Assembly: GCA_010093605.1 (NCBI GenBank)
Contig: MU004187.1
Span: 2,160,882 to 2,215,889 of the forward strand
Direction of reading: 5' to 3'
From: Lophium mytilinum
Lineage: Eukaryota
DNA: 55,008 nt
In this document: positions 1-54,704 of the stretch, piece after piece
How positions within the stretch are numbered: position 1 is the first letter of the stretch
Layout: the number at the start of each line of letters is the position of its first letter
Notes under the pieces: model-generated
Database searches by the model: none
What the model was told of the DNA's origin: nothing
Seen by the model: the letters and a program-made list of their open reading frames with translations, nothing else
Made by a program: the position numbers and the translations under genes

Positions 1-1
1 A

Positions 2-25603: not shown

Positions 25604-25799
25604 TATTAGGAATTTCTAAATTAAGAAACGCGTAGAGAATACTAGTTACTTACGTAACCTTCTAGAAGACTACGTATTTTGCCGCTCCGCGGGCTTTACG
25701 CTACTCCGTAAAAGTTTATCCACTTCTTACGCGAAATTTGCGCGCAGGCTGCGCAGATAATTCTTAATTATAGATAATCTAGTATTATAGGCAATTATT

Positions 25800-28700
25800 A
25801 TAGTTAATAACTACTTTATAGTCCTTGTAAATATAGCTATCTACCTCCTCTATCTAACCTTCTAAAACTGCCTAATCCGCCTAGGTTGCAGATAGATAGA
25901 TAATAATGTAGATAGGGCCTTATATACTAAATGCGTAATTATTACGTATAGTAGGAAATTTAAAGTTGCACTAGTATATCTAGTTATCTCTTCTTACTAC
26001 CTCCGCTAGGGCTTTATAGTCTATAGTAACTTCGCATGCATTATAGACTTTACGCGTTATATAGATAGTAATACCTGTATATATTTCTAAGAATTACGTA
26101 ACTATTACTAACCTTAATAATTTTAATATCCTAGTAGACTATTAGAGCTAGCAACGCGTGCGCTAGACGTTTAGGCTAGGGAATAGCACGCAATATATAT
26201 ATTGCGCGTTAGATAGTAGACTATATAGTAATTTAGGACGCATCTAATTACGGTATATATATTATAAAATAGAAAGATAACGCTAAGTATAAGATAGAGC
26301 CTACTTATACCCTATTTACTAATTCTATGCTACTATTTCTTGTCCCTAATACTTTTAAGCAACTTAATAACTAGCCGCAGGCTTTCTTCTCTAGAATCCT
26401 GTGCCTTAACGCAGGCAGCTATAAACTTTTAATATTAGTCCTTATTAGATATAATTATAGTATTATTTTTATACTAGCTGCATTTATCTTTCTTTATATA
26501 GAACTGCTGCCTAAATTACATAAATAAGAGATTAAGAGGGCACTGCTTCTAGCAGTTCTTTATTTTAATACTCTTCTTAGCCTTTCTATAAATTAGAGCT
26601 AAGCGGTATAAGTTATTATTAGTAAGGGGCTCTATATTATTAATCTTATTATTCTATAGTTAATATAATTAGTATATTATGCTTTAGCTCTCTACCTTAT
26701 ATAATTACCTATACTATCTATAATATCTAATAAAGTGTCCCTAAGGGGGGGGCTAGATGGAATTAAATATAGTAAGGATAAGTACCTAGAGTTAAATAGT
26801 TATACTTTGCTCTTAATGCGCTTTATTAGCGCATGTATCTTCTTGCGTTAGTTAATAAAGTTCCGCTGCTAATCCCGCTCCTTTACTTCTATTCTCGCTA
26901 CCCTTGCGGTAAAGGCCTGTTATTGTTCTAGTATTATGTCTTTAGTTAAATCTAATACGTTATAGCGGTTGGGGTTATTATATATATTCTTATTATTATC
27001 TTCTTTATAGTTTATATACCGACCTACCCGTTTTATAATAAATTCTTGCTAGTAGGATAATAGTTAGTGCTTGCGGCGTAAGCTAAGTGCCCGCTATTAG
27101 GCGAGACATTTATTATAATTTGCTACCCTAGCTTATAGTTAGCATGGTCTTGTATAAGGGGGGCGGTAGTTAATACTAGTAGCGGCGACCCCGTAAATTA
27201 GGTTTATACGCTTCTAGCCTAAGGTATATTTACTAATAGCGTAGTAGAGGCAAGTATATATATATATAATAGTATCGCCTAAAAGGGGGTTAAAAAACTC
27301 TTTTAAGTGTCTTTATATCCCTAAGGCGTTTATAGACTATCCTGTAAAGAGTAGGTCTATAACTACTATCTAGATAGCCTTAGCTATAAAGATTACTAGT
27401 GGCCCCTATAATCTATTAGAATGCTGTCTAACGCTAGGTTAGTAACTAACCTTAGCTTAGTCTTTATCTGCCCTAAAGAGATAGTTCTAATCCTTTATTA
27501 GCATTAATGCGGTGCTAGTAATATCTAGAGTTATAGAACTAAGACTATAGCATTCTTATATAATATTATAAGCAACCTTTATTATAGTATTGCGGAAATA
27601 ACTAAAAGTATTATAAATCTAGGTTATATATTATAATTAGCTATTATATAAGGTTATAGAAGTAGGGAGAGGGTAATATACCTTCCGCGCGCAAAAAGGG
27701 TCTAGAGTAGTGGGGACATTAGCTTAAGCGTAGAATAGTTAGTCTTTATAGACGTCTGCCTATGTTTATATTAGTACTTACTAAAATATATCTAGCCTAA
27801 TACTTTTAGTCTAGGCTATAAGGTTATTACTATATTCCCTAATTATATTAGTACCTAATACTATGCTTCTAAGTATCTAGTATCTTATTTATTCTTCTAC
27901 TGCCGTATATTTTACCTCTATAGTTAGTGCTTTAGCATGCCTATCTACGCTATTCTATATCTAAATTATTTTACTGCGTTATTTTATGCTAAGGGAGCTA
28001 ATGCGGTTATAAACGGGTGTGCCTCTACCTGTGCCTAAGAAGCGGCTAGTAGGAGAGAAGAATAGTAGACTACTTAATGCAAAGATATTAGACCTAGTTA
28101 TTTAGTTAATAGCCCTGCGGGCTTCTATTCTAGCCGCTGTCTTATTTTAGACTATGGCGGTACTCTAATAGGTATTTATTAGCATATACTACTTAGTAGA
28201 GTAGCTATAATATATATATAAGCTAATCTTACGCTTAAAGTCTATTTACACGCGGAAGTTAGTATTACTAGATTAGAAGATAGGCGTGTACCTGTTCTTA
28301 TCCTCTATACCGCGTTTTCTCTTTCCGGCAAGAGATAAGGTGCGGCTGGACGGCCGAGATAATATAGTATTGCCGTCTTAGAATATTCTAGTAGTGCGTT
28401 CTCTTTTACTTATTAAGTTCTATATATTTATTATTAGTTAGCAGGCGTTAGAGTTAAGGGAGCTAGGCGCGTTACTATGTTAATTAGTTTTAAGGCAGCG
28501 CGTTTTTACTTTTTTACTATCTATAGTTATATGCGTTAGCTGTATATATATTAACGTGTACTATAGATAGGGTATATAGTATAGCATATTTAAGTTATAT
28601 AGTAAGTCCCTATTTAGGGTAGAAAGAGATAGTTTTATATTACCTTTTACTATATTTAAGTAGGTAACGTTAAGCCTTACTAAATAATAGATAGGGGGCG

Positions 28701-31700
28701 TGTAGTAAAAGAATATTCTATTTTTTAAGGTAGAGTGCGAGAATAATAACTATAAAGGGAAGTAAAGTAGATTATAATTAAGTAGCGTGGAGAGAAGGGA
28801 ATAAAGGGGGAGTAAGTCGCGCGTTTATTATAATAGAATATAATAGAGCTAGCTAGATGCGGTCTATACGCGTTAACTTAGCGTCTTTAGCTAGTTATAT
28901 GCCTCTTCTCTATCCCCCCCTTAATAAAGCCCTATTATCCTATATAATTAAACACTTCTATCTACGCAATTACCTCTTTTATTATATTGCCTTAGACTAG
29001 AGCTTGCACTTACGCACTTGCATTAACTTCTACTAATTGCCGCACGCGCGCTACTACCTTCCGCTGTTATTTCTAGATGGCATTTTCTACACTATTAGAA
29101 TAGTAGTTAGTTAAGAGATTATAGACTTTGCATTCTATATTATTAGATAGATGGCTAGCTAAGTTAGAGGCCCTAATAGAGGTATTAATATCGCAACGCG
29201 CAGCTGTCCCCTTATCGCTAACTTTATCTCTAGTTAGGCGACCTACTTAGGCGTAAATAACCCGCTAGCTATCTCCTCTAGCTATAGTATATGTCCCTTT
29301 TTTATATTATTAATAATAAACGCCTCTGCCTTTACTAACTAAATTGCGTAACCTTAAGCTATTACATTCTTCTCTCTCTCGGCCTAAAATACTCTCTTTA
29401 CTACTATTTAGGCCTCCTTTCTATAATTCCGGCCCTCTATTAGTCGCCACGCTATAAGCAGTTATATACTATATTATAGGGTACTCCTCTATAGTAAAGA
29501 GGTCTCTAGATAGAAGAATAGAAGGGCAGTCTACTAGTAGTAAATTCCCCCCCCGTAGGATCTATATACCTGGTTAGAACGTTTAGCCGTGCGGCTATAC
29601 TTCTAGTTCTAATAATAGCTATAGTTTAGATAACTCTATACTGCCTATGCGTAGGGATATTAAGCTATCTATATTCTAGTCTAGTAAAATAGTATAAGGT
29701 TATAATAAGGCCCCGCCTTAGAGTAGTATAGTCCTAGTCTAGTTCCCTTAGTAAGGCGGGCTGTAGAATAGTCTAATTATAAATTAGGTTAGCTAGATAT
29801 ATAGACTCTTGCGCTATTTAAGTTCTCTATCTTTTATAGTTCCGCACTCTTATCTCTTATATAACTCTTATATTCTTTTTAACTTTTTCTATAGCTTTAA
29901 TCTCTTACTTATTTATCTTATTGCGCAGGCGTTTATAACTAGTAGAGGCTAATATAGGTATAGGTAGAAGGATAGTATAGTGCTAGCTAGAGTAGATAGG
30001 TATAGAAGTGTTGTCTATCTATGTTAGCTATATTAATTAAAATTATTGCATGTATCTAATATACTATTTAGTTAAGGCTTAATAATTAGGGTAATATAGT
30101 CTAGTTCTCTTAATAAACTCTAATATACTATTACTATATACTAGTCTACCTTATTCTTAACTAGAAACTTAAGATTATCCGCAATATAGTAATATATAGT
30201 TTCGCGTTCTATATTAAGACTAAATATTATATTTAACCTAGTAACAAGTATACTAAATTTAGGGGCTGGCATTACTAGCATACTCTTTAGTAGCGTGGGT
30301 AGTGCAAGTTTATATACTAGTATAATGCGGGCGGCCTTACTACCTAGCCGCTTTACTAATATTAACTTTATTTCTATATACGCTAAACTACGGTAGCATT
30401 TAGGGTGCGGCGAAGTTCTATTTTATTTAGTAGGCGGAGTGTCTATAGAATTAGAATAATAAGACGCGTTAATATAATCTTATCTTTTCTTATTATAGTT
30501 GTATCGCTGTGCAAGTTTTAATATCTACTTATATTCTTCTTTAAGTAGAATATATAAAAGCATTTTAGGAAACTTCTTTATAATGTCTATTATTATAGAT
30601 TATACTATCCCCCTAATTATCTTTAAGTAGAGGGATCCGCCTAGCAGGTCTACTAACCTTATCTTAGTCTCTATCGCGGTATATAGCGTATTGTATTTAT
30701 AGGCGCTAATATTAAGGCCCTATATAAGCTTATTTCTAGAGTCCGGCTTAAGGTTATTAGGTATTAGGGACTAGCCTTATTTATCTAACAATATAATAGT
30801 TTAACAATTCTTAGAATATAGAAGGGGTAGAAAAGGTAAAGTTAGAGTTAGTTTATATACGTATTTAGATAACAGAGTGCTAAGACTAGACTCTTATCGC
30901 GTCTGCGTAACTAAATCGGCTACTTTAGTAGTAACTATTTTATAGTAATTAATAGGATACCTATACTGCCTCTTCTCTTAAGAAGGAACTAAAGCCCCTT
31001 CGCATTAATAGTAACCCAGTATTTATTAAGTTATTAGTGTAAGATCTAGATAGTTTAGTATTAGGCTGAAAATTCTATATTTTATACTGCTGCCTAATAT
31101 ATTTATGCACTTAAGTATTAGAGATAATTATAAATAATGCTCTATTATTAACTATTACTATATAACGGCCCGGTTTATTTATCTAAATATATACTTAGGC
31201 GGTGCTCCCTTTTTTATAATTATTAATATTATTATAGGGCGCTATTATAATGCTTTAGGGCTTTAGCTAATTATATATAGTATAGGGATACTAATATTAT
31301 AAGAGTATAGGCCTACACGCCTATTTTAGGATACTCTTATTTAATTTATATAATAGCTAGGACTAGGGATATATACTTTCTCTAGCGACTTAGATGTATT
31401 AAGAAGCGTAATAAATATAATAGTGTTTTAGAGTATTTTCTAAATTAAGTAGAAAGGTTGCAAATAGATAGCGTCTAAATTAGCTATAGAGTAGCATGTG
31501 AATGTATTATACTATCTTAAAACTAACCTAACTTATCTCTACGTCTAATTAGCTGTGGTGTTGGTAGTATATTAAAATATAGGTAGCTAGAAAGAGCTTA
31601 GTATTAGTAAGTGTATACTTTTCTACCCGTTTTCTTTTAGCTAGTATATATATACAGCACTAAATTATACTACTATAGGCCTATAGTATACTCTAATTTA

Positions 31701-31900
31701 TAGGCTGCTCTATTTAAATCTCTTTATTAGGAATATAAGTAAGATTAGATGCATACTAGCTACTAATATCCTATAGTCTAGATTAGAAGGGTAGAATAGA
31801 GGGTTCTTGCAACCTTTCTATACCTTATAACGTGCGAGAATATTACTAATAATATATGCGGGCCTATAGAGCATTAGCGCCGCTGTATAGATATTTACCT
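25800..31900 (-). pseudogene. Several RIP-degraded cargo ORFs of unknown function, apparently on the minus strand
   Basis: De-RIP minus-strand reading gives long protein-like stretches, e.g. ..AFAARVARMEVKERDRQRNFIDQRKKIHALMKRIKSKV* ending ~26801 and ..LGGEAARIMLVHELALPTLLKS.. at ~30350. Gene number and boundaries are not resolved. Confidence 0.4.
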
Positions 31901-32149: not shown

Positions 32150-35100
32150 ATAATTAGTGCATTTAGTAGTTACCTTAGTACTAATAGTTTCTTAGTTTTT
32201 CTTCTTTTTTAGTATACTTTATATAACCTTATATATAAACTTATTATTATTAACCGCACGGGACTAAGCTAGCGTATCTACCGGGTTGTTACCCCCTATA
32301 TAGGCAAGAATAATGCTGCATATTCTATTAGACCTCTAGTTCTTCTACTATACTTTAGATATAATCTATATCTTAAGGCCGGATGCGGTCTATAGCTCTA
32401 TAACTATTACGCACGTATATTAAAAAGTAAAGTTAGAGCCTTCTACTCCTCTAGTCTTTCGGTTTGCGACTAGAATATTAACGGCCGCTAGATTGTCTTA
32501 ATTACGCTTAAAGCTAGTATTAAATTACTTCTATTACTTAACTATTAGCAATAAATATAACTATGCAAGCTTTTTAGTTAGCATAGTCTTTATAATTATC
32601 TAGTATTAATTATATTAGTTTATTAGATAATAATTGCCAATTATAGATAGAGATAGGTAGCAACTTATAATGCAGATAACTAAATTAACTATAGGCTTCT
32701 TGCTAACAATTAGTATTTTCTTCTTCTTAGCTTAAATGTATTAAACTATGCTCCTAATCTTCTTTAGCTTCCCTAAATTAGCTAGTAGGTCGGTATACTA
32801 TTTAGCGAGAGTACTTTCTAAGTCCGTGTAATCTATCTAGCCCGCATTTTTAATATCTTCTAGAGTAAAGGTTAGGTTACTTATTAAGCTAAGCTCTTTC
32901 TATTACATCTTTAACTTAGCTAGCCTAGGAATTAATGCAAAAATCTAGGGCAGCCTTCTCTTACCTAAGCCTGTTAGAAAGGCGCCTAGGCTAAAGGAAG
33001 GCGGCGGCTTATTAATTGCTGCTCTATGCCTTAGCTATTCTTTATACTCTTCTTTAAGGTCTGCGTATCTCTCTCTAATAACTATATAGTACTCCTTAAT
33101 AAAGGGTTTAAAGTAGTTAAGTATACTAACTATTACCTGCCGTATAATATAGAGCGGCATATTCCCTAAGGGAAGGCCGTCTAGGCTAAGGCTTATTAGC
33201 GTTCTACAGATGCTTATAGCTGTAATTATATCTAACACTCTCTAGAGATGCCTAGATAATTTAGAATTATTCTATAGTTGCCGCTCTTTCTTTATTTTTA
33301 AGGCAAGGTAGTAACCTCTAGCCCCTATAAGGTCTCCTTAATTAATACGCCGGAGGGTAGGGCCTTAATAAAGAATATTAAACTTATCCCCTTTATCTAT
33401 ATCCTCTTTCTCTAACTCCTTATCTAGAAGAGTATTATCCGGGTTGTCTTTAATATTAGCGTTTAAGTTAGTTAGGTCTACTATCTAAGTTAGCGTCTAT
33501 AAACCTCTATATAGCATAACTATTAAATATAATAGAGTTTTAGGGCCGCGGAGAAAAGAAGTCCCGCTATAGAATAAGCCTCCGGGGTAGCTATATAGAT
33601 TAGCAGCCTTATTAAACCCTCTTAAGTCCTAGCCCCAATAAACCTAATTAAGCGCACGGTTAATATTTGCCTATTTGCGCGTAGTTAGATAGAATGCATG
33701 CTAATACTGCATAGACTTAATATAGCTAAAAGCTGTAATATATAGAGATATATTATTAAATTCTAGGTAAAACTTATTAAAAAAAACGGCCCTATATATA
33801 TACGTGGGGGTTACTCTATTACTATATAATAGGTTATAGAATATTATAAAGGTCTCTAGTAAGTTTAAATTCTTATTATATTTTTTATTAAAGGTCTCCG
33901 CGCTTATAATAATAAGGTAGGTTTTTACTTTTAGATTTAGCTTATACTATACCCGACTGTTTATTTCTTAGTGGATAGGCCTAAGGTTCTTCTAGTCTTT
34001 AGAAGTAAGGTTACCCTCTATAATGCTTCTATATACACGCTAGATATAAAGTCTTCCGCTAGGGACCTTAAAATTCTTATTCTTATATTTAATATCTAGC
34101 TAGTATTTCGCCTTCTTATAGGTCTAATTTAGTAGACTCTTCTTAGTAAGCTAAATAACGCAGCCTTTAACGCTGCTAGAATGTAGAGTATTAGTACTAG
34201 CCTCTCTAGTATAAGTAGTAAATGCTATTAATATTTATAGAGTTTTTCCTATTCTAGGGGGGTCTATAAGAATTAGCCTACGCGCCCTACTAGTAAGACC
34301 TTAGATAATACTATATATCCCGGCCACCTAGTATAGGGCCGCACGCATCTTTAGGTTAGTAGTTATTTCTAGTAGCTTAAAGGTTGCGTTACTAGAAAAA
34401 TTCCTATATATTAGAGGTAAACTAAAAAACTATAGCACCTTCTTAAATGCTGCTATTAAGATATTCTTTATAGAGCTTAATATTAGGGCTATTATAGCAG
34501 TAATATTAATAGTATCTACCTTCTCTATATTGGCTGTAATTATCTTATTTATATCTATAGAGGGTCTAGTTTTACTAAGACTATATATATTAAATTTAAG
34601 CGTAGCTATAATATTAATACTACTAATTACTATATCCCCTGCAACTTAGGTATTACTAGGGATAGTCTAGCTGCTTTCTATAGCAACTATAAGCGTATAG
34701 AGTTGTTTTTAGGCGGTTAGGTACTAAGTAGTTCTAGGCCTAAGCGCTCTAAGCTGCTATATAACCTTATTATAGATAATACTAGGCTAAATAGAATTAC
34801 GCATTAACTTAGTATATAGCTAGATAATATTAAGCATCTATTAGAGTAATTGCGCTTTCTTCTCTACTTATAGCTTTTATACCTTCTTCTCTACTAGTAG
34901 TTTCTACTTTCTTTATTTCTCTTACTCCGCTATCTCTTCTAGCTATTTCTGCCTCTTTGCTTTCTCTTTAGTTACGGTCTTAGCTAGCTCTCTTTCCTTC
35001 TATTCTATCTACTTTTTGGCCTTCTCCGCTATTACTATATCTACTAGCTCTCTCTCCTTTATCTCTTTCTTCTTTATCTCTTTCTCCTTTATTTCTTTCT

Positions 35101-36650
35101 TTTTTCTTTCTTTCTCTACTTTTACTATTTCTGCCAGCGCTTTCTCTACTAGCGCTTTCTCCGCCAGCTCTTTCTCCGCCAACTCTTTCTCCTTCTTCTC
35201 TTTCTCTTTCTTTTCTCTCTCTGCTTTTGCTGTTTCTACCAGCTCTTTCTTCTTTTTTTCTTTTTCTTCTTTTACTATATCTACTAGCTGTTTCTACTTC
35301 TTTCCTTTATTCTATTCTGTGGTAGAATTAACTCTATCTATATTAGCTATATATATATATAGACTTATAGTTAAGTTAATAATTATTTTATCTAGAGTAT
35401 TAGCGGCGGTAGGTTTAGGTAGACCCTTAGCCGCGGCAGCCTTAGGCTTGCTATAGCGGGGGCGTTTCTTAGCCGGGCGGATACTAGGGGGCGAGGACTT
35501 AAGAAAGTGCAGACCTAGCTATGCATTAGTTAGTAGTAATATTTAATAATTAATAATAATTAATATATATCTAGTCTTAAGTTTAGATATTATCTCTCTA
35601 ATGTTAAGGCCCTTTACTATAAAACTAAGTACTATCTCTTTAGGTATACTCTTTATTTTCTCTAATAGTGTAGTTAGATAGAAGTTATTCTCTATTAACT
35701 TCTAGGTTCTATTAACTATAATAATGTGCTCTAGAGGGTTAAAGTCTATAAAAGTTCTATTAATAGCTTCTAGAAACTTTATAAAGCTATAGTCTTCTAG
35801 CTCTAGGCCTTTACTACTAGACCTTGCAAGATAGAGAGTAAAAAGGCGTCTAGTACTTTCCCGCTATAGCAGCTAGTATATTGTGGCGAGGACTGCGTGC
35901 AATAGCCGGGGCTTAAATAGAGTATTTCGGGCAGTAATATCTAGGGATTTTATTAGAGAGCTAAGGCCTGCTAATATAACTAACTTTATAGATAAGGCTA
36001 ACTTAAACCGCTTCCGCTTTTTATTACTTTTAATAATACTGCCCCGCATCTTATATTTCTTATAGACTTTATACTAGATTAATATCTAATACGCTTACTT
36101 CTACTTAGCTAATATAGAAGACTCCTTAAATATATAACTCTATATATCTATAAAAAGTATATATATTTTAGACTAAGTATCTAAGTAGGTATTATTCTTG
36201 CTATAGTTGTTTTAGCCTAGTTATAAGAGATATTTTACCTGTAGGTATACTTTAGAGTTCTCTATTAGTATAAATAAGTTAGCTTCTATCTAGCGCTATA
36301 TCTTAGAAGCTAGACCTAAGCCGGCTATAATATTTATTTAACTTAAGTAGCCTTTAGAGTTCTTAGTAAAATTAAATGCCGCCTTACTCTGCAAAGATAT
36401 ATTGCGTAGTAGGTCTACTAGGAATATTATAGTCTTCCCCTAAGTAGGTCTAGAGCGTTAGCGGCTACTATAGGGAGGCCGGCGGCTGCGGCGGTTATCT
36501 AGCTTATCTAGCTCTAAATTACTATTGTAGTCTACTTAACTAGAGTCTATACTTAATAACTATTTATCCGGGTTAAACTTCTTATTGTTTTAATTATTAG
36601 GGAGGCGTTATTAGTAACTAGTGCGTTAACCTAATTTTTTAGCTATATTA
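32150..36650 (-). pseudogene. Divergent SNF2-family (SF2) ATPase/helicase with N-terminal Lys/Glu-rich coiled coil, RIP-inactivated cargo gene
   Basis: Literal minus-strand translation at 34335-34230 is Y*VAGIYSII*GLTSRARRLILIDPPRIGKTL*I, de-RIP HQVAG...GLILADPPGMGKTLQ (Q motif + Walker A). Further motifs: FDEAA ~33615, FCSGT ~33570, GKLEKIRSIV....KKKMLIVS ~32775-32700 (motif IV), ILVANRKTGGVEGSNFT ~32480-32430 (motif V), EIQIISRVWRKNQ ~32375-32337 (motif VI). KEKE/AEKEL tract at 34850-35310. Intron-like acceptors near 35520 and 32560. Confidence 0.72.
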
Positions 36651-37349: not shown

Positions 37350-40300
37350 TAGTAATAACTTCTACCTAATATTGCCTTCTACTTGCCTAGGTTAGTTAAT
37401 ATAGAAAGAAAGGCTAATTTCTATATATAGGTGCCTCCCCCTATTATTTAAGTTAGCGTTGTAAGCTCTACTAGATTAGCGGCTAATAGGTTAAGGTCCT
37501 TAGAATAGAAAGAGAAGTTGGCCGCAGCTATCTAAGGAGGTACTGTGCTGCTTATTATTGCCTAAGCTGCTGCGCGCCTCTCTACCTCTAATAGTAGCTT
37601 ATTATCTACTAAAGTTACGCCCTATAAGCTAGCAGGTAGCAGCACTAATTTATATATCTTTTTACTATCTACCCTTCTTATAAGCGTTACTAATTTAGCT
37701 TATACCGCGGGATAGCTTACTTACCTACTTTCTCCTTTACTAAATAAGTACCCTTACTCTCTAGCCCCTCTACTAGCGCGCACACCGCCTCTATACAGAG
37801 AACGCCCACTTTAACCTACCCGGGAAGACTAGCGTTACCTACCTACGTATTTATTATACTTCTTATCTACTTACTTGCCCCCGCTAGCGCTAGGCTAACT
37901 ATAGTCCGCATTTAACTAGCCTATATATCTCTCTCTCTTATAGCCCTCCGCTACTCTAGGCGGCGCTTTCTAGAGGCTCTACTTAGTAGTTCCCGCTCTC
38001 TTTCTATCTCTTGCAGCTCGCGCTCTAATAACTAGGTTAGCGCGCTTCTTTTTACGGATTTAGCCTTTCTAGAAGTAGTAGAATTACGTAGTTATATCTT
38101 ATAGGCTACGCCTCTAGAATATATATAGGTTAGTAACGCTTAGATTTACCTATTATAGTATGCTATAAGGCTAACCCTTAAGTATAGCTTAAAATTAGTA
38201 GAGGCAGGTTAAAAGTAGATAAGAAAGATAATAGAGTAATACTTAGATATTTAGGGGACTAATTAACTGCTATATAGTATCTGTATTCTACTAGGTAATT
38301 TAGCTATTAAATGCGCGTTTAGATAAAAGCCTCTTAATATAACTAATATCTTACTAGATATAATAGTGCTTAGTTCTAATCTAATTATTAGCCCGATATT
38401 ATACCGGCCTTAACCCTAACTCTCTAGAAGGTAGCTACTACTATAGTAACTTATGCCTTCTATAATAATAGCTAATATACTACCGGTGTATATTAGACTA
38501 AAGCTCTAAACTCTTCTAATAACCTACTCGCTATTAAATTACGGCCTCTTCTTTAACCCCAACTATTTTGTTTAGAATATAAGCGTATCTATCTATACTA
38601 ATACTAACTAACTATTTAAATATATTAGGCCTAACAGTAATATATAGTTTAAAATAGTAAAGGCTAATATACTTTAAATAGAGACTAAGTAGTAAGTCTA
38701 GCTTATGCGCGGTAGTATCTAGACTTAATAGACTAATCTATATATAGAGAGGTTACTACTAAGCCCTTCTTCTAACTCTACTCTAAGGGCGCCGACTAAT
38801 TCTTTAATCTTCTATATAGCATACGCGAAATCTTAGTTATAAGGGATAAATTAAATAAACTATAGAAAGCGGAACTTAAGAAGATACTCGCTACTTAAAA
38901 GACTATAATATAGTCTACTAATAAGTCTAAGTCTATAGTAACCTTTAAAAAGAAATATAGCAACCTTTAAAAGCGCTAGAGATATACTAAATACTAACTT
39001 AATTCTATAGTAAATATTCTAATCTTAGAAGGCTAAATAGGGGTAATAGACGCCTACGCCCTTACTATTATTCTAATAACTATGCCTGATACTACCTATA
39101 TAGTAAAGCTTACTAAGGCGCTATAAGACTAAGAGCTACTAAAGCAAGTTATAATTAAGTGCTAATTTAGAATCTCTACTTAGATGCGCCCTAGCCTATC
39201 TACTAATATACCGGGTGCATAATAGTGCACTTGCTTTTATTATTTTAATCTAGATACGCGTAAACTATAAAAGGTAGCCTCTATAAATAAGCCTAAGTAC
39301 TACTATAACCTTACTATTAAGGGCACCCTTAAGGTTCTTAAGATTCTAGAAGAACACCTACCGCCCTTATTTAGAGGCTAGATAATTAGGTGTAATACTA
39401 ACGCAACCGCTAGTAAAGAGCTAGCAGAGGTCTCTATCTTCCTCGCCGTTATTCTAACCTAACCGGCCACCCCCGCTAAGCTAGTAGAACCCCGCGAGAG
39501 GTTAATATAGGACGCCGTTTACTACGTAAAGGTCTAAGATAAGCATAAGTCTTATATTAGTCTACCTTAGAATCTATATTTTAAATAGTATATATCTATT
39601 ATCTTGCATATAATCTATAGAGAATTAGCTAATAGAAGTCCGGCCTTATAAATATAGCTTATATTTATAGTTCTAGTGTTTAGATTACTATATGCTAATA
39701 AGCTATACTAGATTGTATTCTATAGCTAAGTAGACTCTCCGCTTAATACTATCTATACTAATAAGAAGTTTAAGGCTATAATAATAGATAGTTTTACCTA
39801 GATATACCTAGTTATATCTACGCTAGATACTCTAGAGAAGTTAGCGTCTATAGAAGTATAAGCTAGAGAATTTTACGGCCTTAAGTAGCCTCTAAATCTA
39901 CTATAAACTACACCCCTACTTCTAGAGTTATAGAAGGCTAAACTTCTTACCTAAACTAATCTACTATTTATTAGAATTATAGAGCACCTACTAGTGCCCC
40001 GGCGCAACTACTATATCTACTCTTCTATTAATACTTTAAGCAAGTATATAGACCTAGATTATATTCTCTATTTTAAAGTTACTACTTCTAATATAGAGGA
40101 GTAAAGTCTAGATAATAAGCGCCGGTATACTACTTAAATAGTATATAAAAACATCGCCCAGCGTACTATACTAGTTAACTTATTATAGAAATAGGTTAAC
40201 GCCTAGACTTATAAGAAGTTTTATAAGGTATTATATAATATAGCTACTAAAATACTTATAGTATTACCTATAATACTAAATATAGTAAATATAATAAATA

Positions 40301-42000
40301 ATATAGTAGAGGGCTTTATAGACGCAACTAAGCCCCTTTATATATATCTAGATTAGCACCGGGTTCTAATAATAGAGGATTATATACTGCTAGAGGGACT
40401 ATATGCTATTAATATTTCCTACTAAGGCTGCTCTAACTAGTTTCTATCCCCGTTTAAGTTAGCACGGGTTACAGTTAAGCAAGTTTATAACTTTAAGATA
40501 ACTAGTAGACCGGGAGGGCATAGTAAATATAATATTAAGAATATCCTTAGGTACTATACTAAGGTACTAGACGAGTTTAAGGCTGGCCGGGCTAAGGCTA
40601 GTAATGGTGCGGAGGGGGATAAATAGAATACTGCTAAAGTCTACTATATTAATAGTCTAACCTTCTATATAGACTGCTATACGGCTAGAGGTTTTACTAT
40701 ATTTATCTAAGAACTAATTACTAATAGCACTATTAACTATTATAAAGTAAGTAGCTACCTAGCGGTTAGCTATTACTACTCCGCCTTTAGCTATAACGGA
40801 AGCAATAACTTCTACTCTAAGTATAATACTAGCGAAGATAATAATACTAACTAAGACAGTACCTATACGCTATACTCGGGCGACAATAAATTAATACGCC
40901 GGCGGCTAACTATCTTAGATTACATCTATAAGGCTATTCTAGACCTTAAGAACTGCGCTAGGCTTCTTAATAGAGATAGTAATAGTGGTAATAACTTAAA
41001 CGCGCAAGATAATTGCGGACTATAGAATCTGCGTAAAGATAAGCTTAGCTAGAGAATACAGGACTATATAGCTAAAGTGTTGGCTAAAATATAGTAAGTA
41101 GTAGAGGGCCACTATAATTAGGAATAATTAATAATAATTAAAAATAATTAGATATTCTGCGGGCGGCCCGGGTAGACTATAGTATAAGAGTTGCTGCTGG
41201 CACTAGTTATAGGCGCCGGCGACTTAGACGGGAGGCAGTATCCCTGCTACTAATTTAGAGGTGTTAGTAATCTAGAAGTCTTCTATACCTATATACTTAA
41301 TTTAAAATACTAAGTTATTATTATATTTACTATAGGTTATATATATAAATACTAGATAGTAATATATATAGCCTATAAGCTAATATCTTCCTAGGGCTAA
41401 ATATCTACTAGCCTAATTTCTAGCACTATTAATAAGGGCTTAATAATTCTTTAGCTTCCCTATTAACCTAGTACGGAATAGGGCCTAGAGTTTCGCCGGG
41501 GTATTATTATAAAAGTAGCTAAAGAACTTAACCTACTTTTAACGGCGCGGTATAGACTATTAAAGAAAGGCTTAAGCACTCTTATAATCTATAAGAAGAT
41601 AGTCCTCCGCCCTTACTACTTACTAGTTCTTATAAGTTGTCTACTCTCTATCTACCTTATTCTTATTAAGTGTAGTTATTGCTAACGTGTATACCGCTAA
41701 TTCTACCGCGCGCAAGAGACTTAAGCGGCCGAATTAGTAATATTATAAAACTCCCTGCCTAACTAGCGCCTTCTAGCTATTATCTAATTTTGCGCCAGCT
41801 AAGAGAGACGCGGAGTTTAACCTAGGCTACTTAATGCGCATCTAATATTACTATCTTGTAGCCGTCCTATAACTAGCACTTACCCTAGCCGCCGTCTTCT
41901 TAATAACGCCGGCACTCTTAGTAGATACCCGTTAACTCTATTCTACTAGACTAGCAATACATCGCCGCCCAGCGCTCGCCTTGCGGAAGGGAGTAACGCG
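37350..42000 (+). pseudogene. RIP-degraded cargo ORFs of unknown function, including one reading frame of about 600 codons (~39180-41100)
   Basis: The plus-strand frame reads as protein when TAA/TAG are reverted (..LEILEEHLPPLFGG..AEVSIFLAVIL..VLDEFEAGRAEAGDGAEGDE..RRRLTILDYIHEAILDLENCARLL..). No family recognised. Confidence 0.45.
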
Positions 42001-42334: not shown

Positions 42335-45300
42335 TAGCCCGCCCCCTATTAGAATGCGTTGCGTGCTATTAAAAAATAATAAGTACTATATACTAGCCTA
42401 TAATCTAATATAATCTATAATAATTACTTGCAATCTATAAGTTTCTATATAGGGCTAACTAAATTTAACTAGAAATAGAGTATATACTTTCTACTAAATA
42501 TAAATACTGCTATAAGTTATTCTAAATACTTAGCGCCCTAAATAAATATATACTATGCTATAAAAAGCTCCTTAAGATACTATAGCGGGTTCCGCTTGCT
42601 AATACTAGAACTACTAGATCCGTAATCTAGTCTTGCATGCTCCGCGTTATTTAGATAATAGACGGGATATTATTTAGAACGCCTAGATTGCTACTAGTAA
42701 GTCTACCCCTACTAGCTAACCCCTGCAATAAGATAGAGTATAAGATAAATAAAATAGAGCTATATATCTCTAGTAAACTAGAAGAGTACTAGAGTCCGCC
42801 TTTTATAAATAGAGGCCCTATAAGCTTAATATATAATAACCCGCCGGAGGCTACTAAATTCTACGTTCTATACTAATAAGGCCGACTAATAATATTATCT
42901 ATATTATTACTGTAAGAGGAAGTATATCCCTCTACTAAATTAGGTATGCCTGTAGGGGCGTCTATTAGACAGGCTAATACTAGATAGTAGATGTAAGTAT
43001 TATTAGGGACTGCTATCCCCCCCGCCCGTAAAGGCGGTATTAGAGCTTACTAACTAGTTACTCTATTATAGGGACTAATCCCCCTTCTATCTATTTTAAT
43101 TAGCGTTTAACTATGCTTTTATATTATAGCTTTAGTAGATTAGCTGCACTAAGAATAATATTAACCTGCTATTTAATAACATCTACCTTAAGAGTATATT
43201 CTCTAACTCTCTTATATTTACATTAGGCGATTTATAGAATAGTAAACTAGAGGAAATTAGATATAGTATTAGTAATACTAACTACATAGTAGAGATGCTG
43301 CATTTCCTAAGTAAAAAATAAAGCTTAAGCGGAGAGTGGCATCTAGTATACTACTTTAATATAATAGCAGCTATATTATTTCTAATTAGACACCGCCCTT
43401 TCTATAATTACCTTATATTTATACCGGTTTAAGTCCGCAATATAGAAGGCCGGTAGGTATATACTAAGTTGTATACATTAGACTAGTAGTAGTAGACTTA
43501 GTTAAAGCTTCCAGCGGGGGCTATAGTAATACCTATCTTACTCTCCGCAGATAAGATATAGCTTACCTAATATTACGGCGATAAGAGCGCATAGCTAGTC
43601 TATCTAACTATTAGTAATCTAGATAGGACTACGCGGCGCTTAAATATATTACCTGGCACCCTACTACTAGGCTTTATACTAAGCACGGCGGATAAAGAAG
43701 ACTACCTAAAGTATTAGCTATACTATAGCTCTTTAGGCTACATTCTTAGGTATTAGTAAAATTCTTACTAATACTAAGCGGTTTTCTAATATAAAATAAG
43801 CTATTATAGAATATACTACTAACGGAATTATACTAGAATGCAGGGATAGTAAGAATTAAAGGTGCTATCTAGTATTATACAGAATTATAGCCGATTATAA
43901 AGAATAGAGCCTACTTATAGGTATTAAATTTAGAAAACACTGCACTATATACTAGGTACTATTGCATTAACGCGAAGACCTAGAGACTAAATACGCCGCA
44001 AGGTCTTATTACTTAACTATTATTTAGATTAAATAGCAATGTAATAATAAAGAGTATTTAAAACTTCTACTAAATAAAGCGCTATATAATATAGAGGCTA
44101 TAGAGCTTAATATAGAGTTATATATATATTCTATAAATAACTTTACCTAGAAACACCCCTATACTAATATCTACTAGATAATAATAATAGATATTCTATA
44201 CTAACTATTTACGGGCGTTATTTACAACCTTATTAAATGGGTCTAGCTACTAGTAGCGGAGGTCTACACCCCAGCAATTAGAAGAAAAGATGCCCGTGTT
44301 CTAATAGAAAATAAGAGCGGCTTAACCTAGCTAGACGAGCGATTTAAGGACGTGCCGCCTTTCCCGGGTCTATCTACGTTTAATAAGAAGAATTTTAGTA
44401 AACTTTTATAGTATACTAGCTCTAAATAAAAGTCTATAGCCCGCTAGCTTATAGTAGTAGTAGCACTGCTGCTAGAAGTAAAGGCGCTAAACGCGCTCTA
44501 GTTCGTCTATATAATGCTTAATTTTACTATTCTAGTGCAGTATAAGATGCATAATAAGGCCACGCTAGAGTATATAGAGCTAGTAATAGCTTAAATTAAT
44601 ATATATAAGTTAGAATTTAGAATATTTAGACCTAGAGATAAGGATGGAAACTACGCCTTCTACTATTTAAAATTCTATGTTATGCAGCACTACGTCGATT
44701 TTATATAGAAATTTGGCGCCATTAATAGCTATAATACCGGCTTAAATAGTAAAGTAAAATACTAATACCTAGTTAAATTACGGTATTAGTTAATAAACTA
44801 TAAGGACTTTCTACCCTAGATCTACTAATTAAACTAGAGACTTATAAATAACTAGGCTATAAACGATATACTAAACTACTAATATTACTATTCTTAACCG
44901 GCAGTAATAAGAGATATACTAATATAATAGATAATAGTATTAGAAAGCATTAATATCTTAAACTTTAAATAGCCTAGATATAATAATTTCTATAAAGGCT
45001 AAATAGTATACTATCTAAAAGTAAGTATTAAGTATATAGCTAATATAAGCCGGGAGCTAGACTTTATAGCCGCCGCCGCCGTATTTATTTAAGAAGAGAG
45101 GCGCAAGATCTAAGGCTAATATACTAAGCCTAGCAGTCTAGATATATTAGACCCTAATCTATTCTAGGTTAGCTACCTCTAGCTTAAGTTTTACGCTAGT
45201 ATTTTGTGTTAGAAGCAATTAGGTGCTAGCAAGGACCTAGAAAGCCTTATAAAAGAAAATCTACAGTATAACCCTAAGTAGTAGAACTAAGAATAGCAAC

Positions 45301-45878
45301 GCAACTATTTATAGGTGTAAGAGTATGGCTTAGACTATACTAAAAATAGAAAGACGCGCGTTAGTATTACTAATAGAAGGTTAGTAGGGTAGCTGCAATT
45401 TATAGTAACTATTATAGACCCTATTCTAAAGAGTAAAGATACCTTATAGGCGGCACACTCTAGAGTTTTTATTTACCTTCTAGCGCTAATTAATAACGGG
45501 AAGCTATATTATGTCTATGGCCTAGTAGAGGTAGCTTCTTAGACTTCTAATAATAGCCGCCGCTAATAAAAGCTAGAAGTATATTAATTCTATCTACTAC
45601 TATAAGTCCTCTAAAGTGTATATATTATACTAGCTACCTTTAGCCTAGACTTTACCCATTTTTTTATTAATAACTATATTAACTAGGATTAATATAATAT
45701 ACTCTATATAGAAGACTAGGAGATAGAGGCGCAAGAGGTAATAAGGTAGTACCGGCTTAGCGGTTGCGCTAAAGAGATTAAAGCTGCCCTAAGAGTTAAA
45801 GACGCAGCGGAGATTTTAGTAAAGCGCGTAAGGGTAAGAGCACTTACTAACGCCTTTCTCCCGCAACTAAGCCGGTAA
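42335..45878 (+). pseudogene. Plavaka-family transposase, RIP-inactivated
   Basis: De-RIP motifs in the expected order: ELYTSDWWWQTQLKLPAGATVIPILLSADKTQLT..GDKSAWPVYLTIGNLDRTTRR (43466-43640), RCYPVLCGIIADYEEQSLLTGIKSGKHCTMCQVP (43860-43960), DILHQLFTGV (~44190), KFHVMQHYVDFI.KFGAIDGYDT (44670-44740), FFINNYIDWDQYNILY (~45660-45708). The core is confident. Start and stop are approximate. Confidence 0.9.
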
Positions 45879-46299
45879 ACACTAAGAAGTAGTATAGCGA
45901 AGAGGGGCTATAGCACTAGCAAGCAACGGCGTAAATAGAAATAAGGCCGCAAGAAAAGACGTCCTTAATTTTTCCCTACTATTAAGAGATAATTAAGCAT
46001 TATTTAGCTTTATTAACCTCTAAGGCTAATTAATATAAGATAATAACTGCGTACTTTCCTATATAATTTCTATAATACTAGGTAACGCTAGTATACCCTG
46101 CTAGCGCTGCCTTACTTTACTTTTTAAAATTATACGTTGCTACCTTTACCTGTTTCCCTTTACTAATAACGGCCGCCTAATTAAATTTACTAGCTACTTA
46201 AACTTACTACCCTCTAATTACTTTCTTTCCTTAATACTTTGCAGTAATTAACCCTAAATAGCGCCTATAGTAAGTATATTATCTATACTAGAGGTTCTA

Positions 46300-49200
46300 G
46301 GCTATAGTTAAGTTATAAACTACTTTCTAGTGGGTTAATACTGCAAGATAGAGGTGTAAGGTGCAGACCTTAATACACTTAAACTGTACTTACCTATTCT
46401 AGTCTAGTTAGACGCGGATAAACCTCTCTCTAAACCGGGTTGGGACTATAAGATACCCTCCGCCTTTACTAGAGCGTATACGTCTAAAGAGGGGGATATT
46501 TTCTATCTCCGCAACTTTAAGTATATTAGTAATAATACTCCGTATTTTAGCCCTATTAAACTAATACCTGTAAGCTATATAACGTTCTAGCCGATAATAC
46601 TAAGCTAATAGAATAAGCGTTTTATTAATTAAAGCTGCACCTATCTATACGCGGTTAGAATGTAATCCTTTTATAGCCCTACGCTATAAGATATAATACT
46701 AAGATAAATTATCTAGAAGAGTTAGCGAGTATTAGCCTACTTAAAGAGGTAAGTAAGTACTCTCTCTTCTATAGATACCTACTAATATAATATTCCTTTT
46801 CTAGCTATTTAGGTAATGCTATTAAGACTCTATTATTTATAATACTTATATATATATATTACCGGGTAAGACGCTAACCTTTACCCTCCTAAAATTCTTC
46901 TATATATATAGTCGCGTCTACTATATAGACCTAAATACTAATAAATACTTTAGCCTATAACTATTATCTCCTGCTATAATATATATAGATTGCGGATCCG
47001 CTAGCCTTATAGATAAGTGTACCGGTCTAGACCCGCTCTAACTAAATATAGCTAACTAGTTAATAATACTTTAAAACCTCTTAAGCGATATCTATATGCG
47101 ATATATTATTAACTATAAATAATAGTTAGACTGTAACCTACTAAAGCCTTTTAATCTAGAGGACTTTTAGCACTTAGTTAATCTATATATAATAGAACTT
47201 ACTAACTATAGAACTAATTTAGAGATAAGTAAAGCGTTTAAGTTAGAATTTAAGCCTAATACAGATAATACGGAGAAGAAGAATATAGAGATAGAGGCAG
47301 GCGAGGTAGATAATACTAAAGCGGAGATAGAGGCAGACAATATAGAAATAGAGGATAGCGGGTAGAAGGCTTCTCTTAAGCGTGCTTAAGTTATATAGTA
47401 GGCGGTATATATAGTTAGTCTAGACCCCTAAATATAGTAGTTTATTCTATAATAGCGTCTATATTTAAGTATAAGGTATAATAGAGTTTTAAAAATATTA
47501 ATACATAAGTTAATTACTAGCAATTTAATTTTTCTTACTACCCATACGCTTAACCCTTCTCTTTTATAGATTATTAATTATAATTAGAGATTATATATAT
47601 CTCCCTTTTATAATTAGAGTTAGCCCGCTACTTATATTATCTTACCCGTCTTAATTCTATTATACCCCTTCTTGTTAAGTAGGGCTACTACTTATTTAAA
47701 TACCGCGCAGGTATATATAAGTTAGTTATACTAGTTAAGATTTACGCCCTATAAACTATTTAAAGTAATACCTAGGGTAGCTAATATTAGGGGCTGCATC
47801 CCTAATAATATTAAGAGGCATTCTATTAGTAGACCTACTACCCCGTCTAATAGACCTAAATTCTTCCTCTAATTCTAAAGTAGTATATATTATTCTTTAT
47901 CTTTAGGCTCTAACGCTAGAAGACCGCCCTTTATAGAGCCCGGTATCGCCCGCGGCTTCTACTCTATTGCCTCTAATGCTTAATATAATTAATTATAATT
48001 AGAGATTATTACCCTCTTACAATAGTATAAAGTCTATCTTAACTATCTAACTTCTTAGGCTACGCAGCGTTATCTATTACCTAAGCTAAGGCTATAAACC
48101 CGCTTTACCCGGTAGGCGCGCGTTATGTTATAGCTAGTAAAGACCTTTACCTCCTCCGCTAATAACTAAGCAGGCCGGTAAGTAAAATCTAACTCTAATC
48201 TTACTCTCGCGTATAAGCCTTGCTATACTCTTTCTTACTATATTACTAATAGCTTAATAGCCTAAATTACTGCAACCCTGCTACTGCAATAGAGTAGATA
48301 GTAGTCTACTAGGATAGACTGGCGGACCTTACTATTACTATCTATATTAATAGCTATATAGACTACTTTAAAGCGCTATATACTATATATAGCGGAGATA
48401 ACCTAGAGAAAGCTACTATATTTCCCCAGCGCCCTTAGAAAGATATTACTAACTTTAAGGTTAAATATAATATACTTATCCAGTCTATATATAAGTATTT
48501 ACTATACCTAGTTCTAAGTTAAAAATTAGGTAATATAAAGGGCGGCCAGTTTAATAAGCTAGAGATAAAGACTATACTAGAGGTAGTAAAGAAGGCCTAT
48601 AGGGATAGCTCTAAGAGCTTCTTTATTAAGAATTAGGCCTACGTAAGTCTATCTACTACTTCCCTACCTATATCTACTAACTATTCGCTAGTATAAGGAG
48701 CTTATAGTACCTATAGTTCTAGATAAGAGCGGCTTTAAATACTCTAGAGGTAAAGAAGGTATAGTAGTGTAGCTATATAAGGGCTATAGACTCTAAGTTA
48801 ATATATCTATAAACACGCTTAATATTACTAGCAGCGCAGTACTAATTATATATATAAGCTACACTTTAATACCTACTCTACTAAGTATATTCTAATCTGT
48901 AATTATTAATATAGATGTTAGAAAGACCTTCTACTACTACTAAGACCTAAAATATACGCCGCTGCTATACGTAAGAAGATTACATATTTACTAACCTATA
49001 TTTAGTCCTCTTACTAATGCGTGCCTACTTTATTAACTCTAAAGATAGTTCTATATTTAAAGTTAGCCTTATAAACCTAATATTATTCTGCTTAAATTAC
49101 GCCGCCTTAGGCAAGGCTATTAGCTGCTATGCAGCTACATCTAGGGAGAAAGGGGAGAAAGACAACTGCGACCTTTAACTAGAAGTCTAAATTTACACTA

Positions 49201-50700
49201 AGTATATTCTTGCAGTTAAGCCGCAGATCTTAATATTCTAGAAGACTAGAAGCGTGTAAGTAGTGCTATTATTGCTAGAGACCTATATCTTTATAGACAA
49301 GCCGCAGACCTTAATACGCTAGAAGACTAAAAGTATATAAGAGGCGCTATTATCGCTAGAGACCTTAGTAATAGCTAAGGCTAAAGAGAAGAACTTAGAA
49401 ATAGCAGTATTAGGATAAGAGACTTAAGGTGCAACCTTAAAGAATAAATATAAAGCGCTACCTAATAAACTAGAGCCTATAGACCTTATAGAAGATAAAG
49501 ATAAATTAGATATATACTACTTTAATAATAGAAAGAACTAGGTAGAGAAAGTTAACTAGAATAAAGAAAATGCTATAGAGGAGGTATTATCTATAGAAGA
49601 CCTAGATAGCTTAGAGGTGGCGGAGGCGGCCTTATATAAGGCTAAAATAGGCCTAATTATAGCTTAGACTAGCGTTAAGAAGGCCTTAGAAATTATGCGT
49701 ACTTGTATAGTAAGGGATAAAGAGGAGAATACTAACTCTACTATCTTCTACTCCCCTAATATTATCTAAGAGACGCCTAAAAGTGGATATAGAAGGCGTG
49801 TACACTTAGTATAGTAAGTACTTCCTTAAGGAATTACTAATTTCCTAGCGCATATATAGGTAGAAAGCGGCCTTAAATAGAACTATATAAGTCTATCTAT
49901 ATATACTCTCTATATACCTTCTATACCCTTACGCCGCTGCTAAGTTAACTTTTAATAGATGCGCAGCATGTATATATACCTTATGTCTTAGAGCCTATCT
50001 CCGCCCTAAGCTCTAACTTAGAAACTGCTTATCTACCTACTTCTAATATAAACCCCCTAAACTGCACACGCTTAAAAATACTACTAGTCTTATAATATCT
50101 ATTTAGAGATGTTCTATAGTTATAATACCTAGCGCGTTAAGCTATAATATAAGGGATTAAACCTAAGGCTAATTAAGAATAACTATTAGTAATAATGGCG
50201 CACTACTATAAAGACGCACTTATGCAAGATCCTAATAGTATACTTAAGGGAAAAGTATATAGCAACTATTAGTTAAAATACGTGCGCCTAAGCCTTAAAT
50301 TTCTAGCGCCTGCCTATATATATAACAGGACTATTCTCCTCTATTCTACGGGTATAAAAGCCTGCCCCGCATCTCTTTCTCTATGCTATAGAGTAGTAGA
50401 AGGTAGTAAGAGTTAAAAAGGTAGAAGAGTTATAGTAGAGATTAACTTAAGGCTAACTATTTAGAATATAGCGGGTGTTAAAATTGCGTATACTAATAAA
50501 TTATAGTAGGGGCTAAAGCTAGCAGAAACTTATCTAAGAAGCTAGAATATAGAGAATAAGAGGTAGTGCGCGGGTATAGCTTACTAATAGTATCTACTAT
50601 AATAGAAAGCTAATAGCGCACTAATATCTAGGTTAGTAGTTAGACTAGCACAGTTCTATAGAGCTATATTAGGCAAAGGTAATATACTCTAGTATTACTA
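46300..50700 (+). pseudogene. RIP-degraded cargo ORFs of unknown function (at least two, with acidic tails/linkers)
   Basis: Protein-like plus-strand frames at ~46400-47390 (acidic end TEKKNVEMEAGEVDDAEAEMEAD) and ~47900-50700 (includes an 81-bp tandem duplication at 49218/49299 and an acidic coiled-coil stretch). Confidence 0.4.
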
Positions 50701-51500
50701 GCTTATATTGCCTACTAAGCTTCTCTATCCCTTCTGCTCTACTCTATAAGCTTTTTTATCTACTAGGTTTCTCTATCTCTTCCGCTCTACTCTATATAAT
50801 AGCGCCTTAGTTCTAGTGTAATCTTTTATATATATAGCTCTTAATCTTTCTAACTACTACACGCGACTATATATCTATATTCCCCACCGGCTTTTAACCC
50901 TACCCTAACTACTACTTCTCTAGCCCTACTTTCCTTAGAAAATAAGCGGGTAGATAGAATATATACTCTATTACCGGCGCTAGATACACTTTAATCTAGT
51001 ATTACGGGGATAATCTAGCCCTTATATGCGCTAGTAATAGACGACTATCTACTATATAATAACGCGGTAGAGAGAGGGAAAATAAAGCTACCCCTACTCT
51101 AATATCTCTAACTCTCCTTGTAGTACTGCGCAAGATTATCTAGAATTATATAAGATTATCTATAATTATTATAGTGTGCCCCCTATATTCTTATATTCTA
51201 AAAGAGACTCTAGCCTATTTTTTTAAGTATATTTTAGGTTCTATAACTACCCCGCTAGATAGAGAGTATATATTCTTATTACCTTCTAGCGTATAAGTAC
51301 ACTATAGGCTAGGTTGCAAAATAATAGTATCTTAACTCTTAAGGTTAGAAGTGTAATAGGAGAGACTATAAACAGAGGAGCGGCAACCTAAAATATAGAT
51401 AGAAGGAGTAAAGCGTGCTAATATAGAGGGAAATAAAAGACGTAGAAGAAGTAAATAGAAAGAAGGGGCTATAGAGGCGGTAGCGTTATAGCTATAATAC
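50690..51500 (-). pseudogene. RIP-degraded cargo ORF of unknown function near the right end
   Basis: Minus-strand de-RIP ..AVLQGELEMLEQGQLHFPSLPRY..IEVYLAPVMEYIFHLPAHFLRKVGLEK..HRVERKRQRNLV. Boundaries are approximate. Confidence 0.3.
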
Positions 51501-52220
51501 TAGAGGCTATTCTATAATATAGATATAAGAGACTACTACTAGAGCTTATATTAGTAGTAGAATAGTTATATACTTTTTATTATTTGCGGATAGTTATACA
51601 CCGCGGCCTAACTCTTAAATAATGGGTCTTAGTAGCAACGTAGTAAGAGTCTACCTAAGAATATATTAAGTATCCTAATTATAATTTATAAGCTAGACCC
51701 AGCACTAAATTATAGAATAGATAGATTATATCTTTTCTACCTATTCTTTATATATCTATTAAATCTACTTTTTAACTACTATAGCCCTAACTTTACTATA
51801 CTAACTGTTTATAGGATAAAGATTAGACGTTCTAGCCTAAGTACTTACTATCTCTACTTACTTCTACCCCCGCCTTGCACTGCTATAGAGAGGGAAGAGC
51901 GGTAAATAGAATTATTTTATAGCAGAACGTGGGCGGCATTATATACGGGGCACGTGTGTATTAGCTCTAGTACTGCTAAGGCTAATTAGGTAAAAGATAC
52001 TATAGAACTAAATTATTAATAGTTTAAAATAATAGATAATAATTAAGTGTTATTAGGCTGTATAGTATATAGGTAAACTACTACTAGTCTATATAGTAAT
52101 ATTACCTGCGCTAGTAGTTTACGCAGACATTGCATAATTTGCGCGGTTTACCGGAAGTTTGCGCCGTTCGCTGCCGAGCACTAATAGCCCTAACTTTTAT
52201 AGTTTTAGGTTTTTCTAATA

Positions 52221-54449: not shown

Positions 54450-54463
54450 AAAGGGGGGGTATA
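54450..54463 (+). other. Polypurine tract of the Gypsy element
   Basis: AAAGGGGGGGTATA immediately precedes the 3' LTR. Confidence 0.85.
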
Positions 54464-54699: not shown

Positions 54700-54704
54700 A
54701 TACG

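Follow-up and report, generated by a model that had tools for sequence, protein, structure and literature searches.

Introduction

Plavaka elements are moved by a DDE transposase and are placed, together with EnSpm, Mirage, Chapaev, Transib and RAG1, in the CMCT clade (PMC12730594). In the descriptions given there, PlavakaA elements have 2-bp target-site duplications and ends of the form TGT..ACA, whereas PlavakaB elements have 2-3-bp duplications and ends of the form CATCA..TGATG (Kojima, 2025; PMC12730594). Here, we describe a Plavaka-type DNA transposon of 26,617 bp, degraded by repeat-induced point mutation (RIP), at positions 25604-52220 (plus strand) of a 55,008-nucleotide stretch of contig MU004187.1 from Lophium mytilinum (GenBank assembly GCA_010093605.1, contig positions 2,160,882 to 2,215,889); this whole stretch is called the window throughout. 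With a probability of roughly 60%, we take the element to be a single dead copy of a Plavaka-type cut-and-paste transposon of unusual length which arrived as one unit.

Among the entries listed in PMC12730594 there are Plavaka consensus sequences of about 20-24 kb, namely PlavakaB-1_GyCo with 24,396 bp, which includes TET, and three more PlavakaB families of at least 19.4, at least 21.6 and at least 22.0 kb; Plavaka-11_AB is listed with 9,895 bp and six PlavakaA families with at least 8.1-9.1 kb. The published ends in its supplement read TGTCGGAAAAATCC.. for PlavakaA and CATCAGGAAAA.. or CATCAGCAAAA.. for PlavakaB. From red algae (Bostrychia), giant Plavaka elements are reported which measure 17.4-19.1 kb, have three accessory genes and account for a third of a red-algal genome (10.1101/2025.02.11.637652), and enlarged En/Spm families of 16-20 kb with 4-5 open reading frames (ORFs) had been noted in a 2019 review (PMC6431247). 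Giant multi-gene Plavaka architecture has already been published, and the concept is not new.

Results

The left terminal inverted repeat of the element (25604-25620, +) reads TATTAGGAATTTCTAAA and the right one (52204-52220, -) reads, as the reverse complement, TATTAGAAAAACCTAAA; 13 of 17 positions are identical between both and 2 others differ by a transition. The dinucleotide CT is found on either side, at 25602-25603 and at 52221-52222. For an empty-site test, the flanks were joined by script after dropping 0 to 5 bases 3' of position 52220. Dropping exactly 2 bases led to a complete in-frame read of the interrupted RNase H (...KKLLTIILTFKE*KL*Y*GNKY*NPI*VLIDY*NLLYFITT), dropping 5 bases also kept the frame at the cost of two residues, and every other choice shifted it. 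The Pfam RT_RNaseH_2 match at 25363-25605 (E = 1.4e-10) ends at position 86 of the 100 positions of the profile, exactly at the edge of the element. Because the RNase H frame closes on removal of 2 bases, the 2-bp duplication is demonstrated by the host reading frame, beyond the mere recurrence of CT, and this evidence comes from one insertion, the right end of the second copy described below being beyond the window.

The same terminus opens a second copy at 19623. Its left 1.2 kb (19623-20857, +) is more heavily RIPed than copy 1, and it resumes at 54700-55008 (+), where it runs off the window. In the self-comparison, 19623-20857 matched 25604-26820 with 88.3% identity over 1236 bp and 54698-55008 matched 26814-27124 with 85.2% over 311 bp. 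Both copies are collinear across all 1.5 kb visible, and the 172 differences in 1,520 aligned positions are transitions without exception (0 transversions), with copy 1 retaining C or G in 163 of them. It follows that the copies were near-identical before RIP, copy 2 having gone through more of it; the element is a repeated, mobile unit. The base-exact ends, the 2-bp CT duplication, the imperfect inverted repeats of about 17 bp and the second copy beginning at 19623, all of which a first-pass annotation of this DNA had proposed, are borne out by these results.

Copy 2 is split by a Ty3/gypsy-type long terminal repeat (LTR) retrotransposon (20858-54699, +), which in turn was hit by copy 1. Its LTRs, at about 20858-21093 and about 54464-54699, are about 236 bp each and 92% alike (20865-21096 versus 54471-54702, 92.2% over 232 bp). 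The retrotransposon starts with TG, a purine-rich tract precedes the 3' LTR, and the 5-bp target duplication reads ATGCG on the left and ATACG on the right, the latter forming the first 5 bases where copy 2 resumes. Pfam matches were obtained for RVT_1 (E = 1.6e-16), RT_RNaseH_2 (E = 1.3e-10) and SH3_Tf2-1, a Tf2-type SH3 domain (E = 2.3e-5), while gag, protease and integrase core were undetectable in the domain scan. The nesting gives the order of events, with copy 2 as the oldest insertion, followed by the LTR retrotransposon and last by copy 1. The two parts of the retrotransposon, 20858-25603 and 52223-54699, add up to a native length of about 7.2 kb and are RIPed.

Two smaller features were observed in the copies. 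At 19699-19748, copy 2 contains 2.6 perfect repeats of a 19-bp unit for which copy 1 has one GC-rich version; this is a small tandem duplication found in copy 2 only. Also, the GC-rich heptamer TTTGCGC occurs five times in the 39-kb AT-rich part of the window, all five inside the element; three occurrences (25737, 52138 and 52158) lie within 135 bp of the element ends and on one strand, the others being at 33674 and 41789. They may serve as subterminal binding sites for the transposase, or may have survived RIP by chance.

Twelve pieces covering 25001-53402 were translated in six frames, with X at stops, and searched against Pfam on both strands (E ≤ 0.01). Only two families were matched, the interrupted RNase H and the Plavaka transposase core PF18759. 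The latter spans 43319-44243 (+) and is split between two frames, the change falling near 43800; it is composed of a match at 43319-43813 (48 bits, E = 1.4e-12, profile positions 37-214) and another at 43791-44243 (40.6 bits, E = 2.4e-10, profile positions 191-325). Both scores exceed the gathering score of 26.3 bits and jointly they cover positions 37-325 of a profile of 325, so that the proposal of a Plavaka transposase in the first-pass annotation holds. With 17 stops in 165 codons and 28 in 390, the transposase gene is dead. Reading by eye in three frames extends the transposase to about 44.9 kb, GC 3-periodicity (p < 0.01) is found in windows covering 43901-45700, and the likely extent of the dead gene is 43160-45700 (+), with approximate limits. 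At the places expected for the motifs of such transposases, as assigned by eye, the reading gives ...KHCTIY* and ...DILY*L..., which would fit RIP-made changes of Cys to Tyr, His to Tyr and Gln to stop. When the RIPed transposase was used as query in a word-indexed protein search, no match was obtained. None of the 12 pieces, read in six frames, had a Pfam match (E ≤ 0.01) to DUF3435 or any other tyrosine recombinase, in agreement with the earlier statement that the element is not a Starship.

All three termini in the window read TATTAG. In order to judge which original ends may lie behind this sequence, RIP-type changes between the copies were counted by context (25604-27124 versus 19623-20857 plus 54705-55008), the counts being conditional on sites that copy 1 still keeps. 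Changes were found at 53 of 61 CpA sites, 78 of 100 CpG sites, 19 of 89 CpC sites and 13 of 244 CpT sites. CpG was therefore hit almost as often as CpA, and CpC and CpT far less; the preference usually quoted for RIP is CpA, and the CpG share observed here is broader. Such a spectrum turns CATCAG (two CpA changes), TGTTGG (two changes) or TGTCGG (three changes) into TATTAG. The ends are compatible with published Plavaka ends once RIP is allowed for, the original bases being unreadable. An assignment of the ends to PlavakaA specifically was considered and dropped, as the PlavakaB-like CATCAG takes just two CpA changes. A classical CACTA element, with TATTAG as RIPed CACTAG, was also considered and rejected, because a CpT change (13 of 244 sites hit) and a 3-bp duplication would be required; EnSpm/CACTA elements have CAC..GTG ends and 3-bp duplications, and the duplication here is 2 bp. 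Transposase and duplication both point to Plavaka and the termini are compatible with it, and this assignment would cover PlavakaA and PlavakaB alike. Two degenerate subterminal patterns gave 0 matches each against metagenome contigs of the JGI.

Two parts make up the window, one gene-rich (1-16000; GC about 50%), the other AT-rich (16000-55008; GC 25-39%). The AT-rich part shows the classical RIP signature: TpA/ApT is 1.55-1.81 compared to 0.67 in the genes of the window, and (CpA+TpG)/(ApC+GpT), hereafter the RIP index, is 0.00-0.33 compared to 1.25 in those genes. Across all 44 windows of 600 bp inside the element, the RIP index averaged 0.34 (sd 0.09; range 0.15-0.50), as compared with 0.12 in 20 flanking AT-rich windows (Mann-Whitney p = 1.3e-8). 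At position 25604 the index rises sharply from 0.04 to 0.38, and at 52221 it drops from 0.40 to 0.12. No inner window comes near the index of the host genes and none is as heavily RIPed as the older flanks. Since no inner window looks un-RIPed, the whole interior was duplicated DNA when RIP acted, and the even RIP level with sharp steps at the borders fits one insertion of a repeated 26.6-kb unit.

In a different history, the insertion into the RNase H region would have been an ordinary Plavaka element of about 8-12 kb, later swollen to 26.6 kb by nested repeats devoid of recognizable protein domains before RIP acted on the whole. We consider this history possible, if rather unlikely. Nesting is the local rule, as copy 2 contains the LTR retrotransposon, which contains copy 1, with the remnant of another transposase (DDE_3, see below) nearby, and about 20 kb of the element are without an identifiable gene. 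However, self-comparison and repeat scans of the element revealed no inner LTR pair and no long inverted repeat. In a scan with the terminus pattern, 16 matches at exactly 3 mismatches were obtained versus 9.0 expected by chance; none of them represents an inner copy of the terminus, and the three known ends alone are real. Six-frame Pfam analysis showed no second transposase, reverse transcriptase or integrase inside the element, although RVT_1, RNase H, SH3_Tf2-1 and DDE_3 were all picked up by that scan in the flanks, where RIP has been heavier. When the interior was compared with the flanks and with itself by sensitive blastn, AT-rich matches at 58-76% identity were obtained and nothing else, that is, no repeat shared by interior and flanks beyond AT-rich noise. 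Also, no inner window is markedly less RIPed, as would be expected for a later arrival.

Several points weigh against an arrival in one piece. The RIP index is uneven within the element: from about 0.39 in the left arm it falls to about 0.24 between 36.4 and 40.6 kb and to about 0.22 between 46.6 and 49.0 kb, and these dips could mark pieces of other history, as nested insertions would be. Copy 2 is visible for 1.5 kb, which leaves about 25 kb of the interior without comparison, and short non-autonomous elements, solo LTRs or unclassified repeats that were nested before the last rounds of RIP escape all of the tests applied. No accessory gene could be confirmed, and the six PlavakaA families mentioned above, at about 8-9 kb among those listed, would suit a smaller element with later additions. 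On the other side, the published consensus sequences of about 20-24 kb favour a single unit. Movement of the whole 26.6 kb in a single transposition event is the inferred step in the one-unit reading, and we hold it to be likely.

Macro-transposition or capture, in which the ends belong to two neighbouring elements, or to one element with a block of host DNA, and the interior is mostly former host DNA, is improbable. CACTA-type, Mutator-like and Helitron elements are described as taking up host fragments (PMC6431247), and the accessory genes typical of the family were not found in the interior. However, there is neither an inner terminus nor a second transposase, the RIPed state of the entire interior requires prior duplication, and no host-type Pfam domain survives inside while domains do survive in the more heavily RIPed flanks. 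A misjoin of 26.6 kb within this region is scarcely credible, for although repeat-rich AT isochores are hard to assemble, it would not yield inverted ends, a 2-bp duplication and an exactly closing RNase H frame, nor would it place steps of the RIP level at those two exact bases.

The cargo of the element is unreadable. In the first-pass annotation, 8-10 further ORFs had been assigned to the interior, a number that we do not find supported: among stop-to-stop frames of 120 aa or more, a single one (34845-35456, +) overlaps the element, periodic stretches other than the transposase number three at most, and Plavaka is the sole Pfam family. In a scan for GC 3-periodicity, 24 windows out of 128 were flagged in the AT-rich part. 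Of the 86 windows contained entirely in the element, 11 were flagged, and these fall into four places, at 34.3-35.8, 39.4-40.6, 43.9-45.7 (the transposase) and 48.7-49.9 kb. As controls, the gag/pol region of the retrotransposon and the transposase were both flagged. Two of the three places other than the transposase hold tandem repeats with a period that is a multiple of three, and such repeats alone can produce the signal. Stop density per frame is a weak guide, because even the Plavaka domain was not singled out by it.

The best candidate for an accessory gene is a long low-stop frame of about 1,080 codons (32807-36046, -) which has about one stop per 20-25 codons compared to a window median of about one per 9, shows periodicity at 34301-35800 and belongs to no known family. 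It includes a Lys/Glu-rich tract at about 34850-35320 (-) of about 150 codons, with tandem units of 15, 30, 45 and 105 bp. As AAR and GAR codons offer few targets for RIP, this tract is nearly stop-free, which also accounts for the long open frame on the plus strand that runs antisense to it. The frame gave no Pfam match even at E ≤ 10. When its 680-aa C-terminal part (32807-34846, -) was compared by HMMER with 1.84 billion representative proteins, one match was obtained, to a 5,212-aa Thr/Ala/Ser/Val repeat protein of which 19 stretches aligned to one short part of the query, and it was rejected as a repeat-summing artefact. For the N-terminal part, nothing was found in the word-indexed protein search. 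Weaker signs of coding were seen at 39401-41040 (+), with periodicity at 39401-40600 and a low-stop frame at 40201-41040 without any meaningful Pfam match, and at 48701-49900, a weakly periodic stretch that includes an 81-bp tandem repeat at 49203-49364.

On nine low-stop frames, Pfam searches at E ≤ 10 were blank in eight cases and gave a meaningless 9.2-bit match (E = 1) in the other. Inside the element, no Pfam family other than Plavaka was matched on either strand; specifically, TET/JBP dioxygenase, DNA methylase, SET and ParB-like domains gave no match in six frames, RIP lowering the sensitivity of such searches. Scans for tRNAs and Rfam RNAs gave none. These blanks do not prove that accessory domains are absent, because RIP cuts sensitivity and the control search with the RIPed transposase was also blank. 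Taken from the periodic and low-stop stretches, there would be room for at most about three accessory genes, all of them candidates.

In the gene-rich part of the window, a 1,009-aa exon (8735-11764, -) is 95% identical to Vps54 of Mytilinidion resinicola, the next-best match being 77% identical. This identity places the host as a Dothideomycete near Mytilinidion. The gene for Vps54, a protein of the GARP complex, lacks a RIP signature; about 4 kb separate it from the AT-rich block, whose edge is sharp, at about 16.0 kb, with GC falling from 0.48 (15001-16000) to 0.29 (16001-17000). A remnant of a Tc1/mariner-like transposase (Pfam DDE_3, E = 7.9e-7) is present at 16752-17180 (+), in the stretch with the heaviest RIP, which separates the last host gene from copy 2. 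Of the sampled sequence words, a fraction of 0.41 was present in two read runs of one sample and 0.05-0.06 in two air metagenomes.

Discussion

Judged from what is established for the clade, a DDE transposase would have bound the inverted ends of the element and excised it, and the element would then have been joined into a target site whose strands had been cut 2 bp apart; repair of this stagger would give the duplication of CT on both sides. As the nesting shows, the older copy 2 came first and was later interrupted by an LTR retrotransposon, whose RNase H region then received copy 1; RIP afterwards wrecked every reading frame. The interior beyond the transposase would consist of about 20 kb of element-specific sequence, including no more than a few accessory genes, all degraded and belonging to no known family. 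The reading of the first-pass annotation, a giant DDE element carrying a gene cassette, survives in its first half, namely in a Plavaka-type DDE transposon with base-exact ends and a second copy; the gene cassette is not supported.

A bolder interpretation would be that this is the longest Plavaka yet seen and the first from Dothideomycetes, and that it moved as a 26.6-kb unit with about 20 kb of lineage-specific accessory genes, among them one for a protein of about 1,000 aa which has a Lys/Glu-rich coiled-coil region and falls outside all known families. We regard this combination as doubtful. If true, it would mean a DDE-driven carrier of new genes in a fungal group in which that role had been ascribed to Starships. 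More modestly, the element extends the host range of Plavaka to a Dothideomycete and nudges the known size upward, and the locus offers a clean, datable example of nesting (copy 2, LTR retrotransposon, copy 1). Intact relatives with this 26-kb layout, should there be any, would reveal the load of a DDE transposon in an ascomycete with active RIP. Given a dead copy, an unreadable cargo and a published concept, the present evidence amounts to a useful annotation and not to a discovery. To a family already described, the element adds a member that is new, very long and dead; that it moved in one piece is likely but unproven. We found no report of Plavaka in Dothideomycetes in the open-access papers that were searched, and the consulted parts of PMC13066641, PMC12910237 and PMC5751038 contain nothing on such elements in relatives.

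Starships are also large mobile elements of Pezizomycotina able to carry many genes, but they move by a tyrosine recombinase 'captain' (DUF3435) and reach hundreds of kb. The 'gigantic' KDZ elements of Cryptococcus are, as described in PMC11343200, likewise large fungal DDE transposons with inverted ends, target duplications and extra ORFs without known domains, which the authors liken to Starship cargo; in contrast to the element studied here, with its 2-bp duplication, they belong to a different superfamily, have a CxC domain and include some active copies. The giant Plavaka elements of red algae share with our element a DDE Plavaka transposase and well over 10 kb of extra sequence between the ends. 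Their cassette PAG1-3 is reported to encode a DNA methylase with SET and a ParB-like protein with a 2OG-oxygenase (10.1101/2025.02.11.637652), and the corresponding Pfam domains were not found here. Closest are the fungal PlavakaA and PlavakaB elements (PMC12730594). In comparison with these, the TET/JBP domain was not found here by six-frame Pfam analysis, and the host is a Dothideomycete, while the abbreviations of the families listed there read as Agaricomycetes and one Tuber. The transposase belongs to the same family (PF18759), the 2-bp duplication fits both groups, and the terminal hexamer with the A-rich run that follows is compatible with TGTCGGAAAAA.. of PlavakaA or CATCAGGAAAA.. of PlavakaB after RIP-type transitions, as far as the ends given in that paper go. 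With 26.6 kb, the element is slightly longer than the longest consensus listed and about three times as long as the PlavakaA elements.

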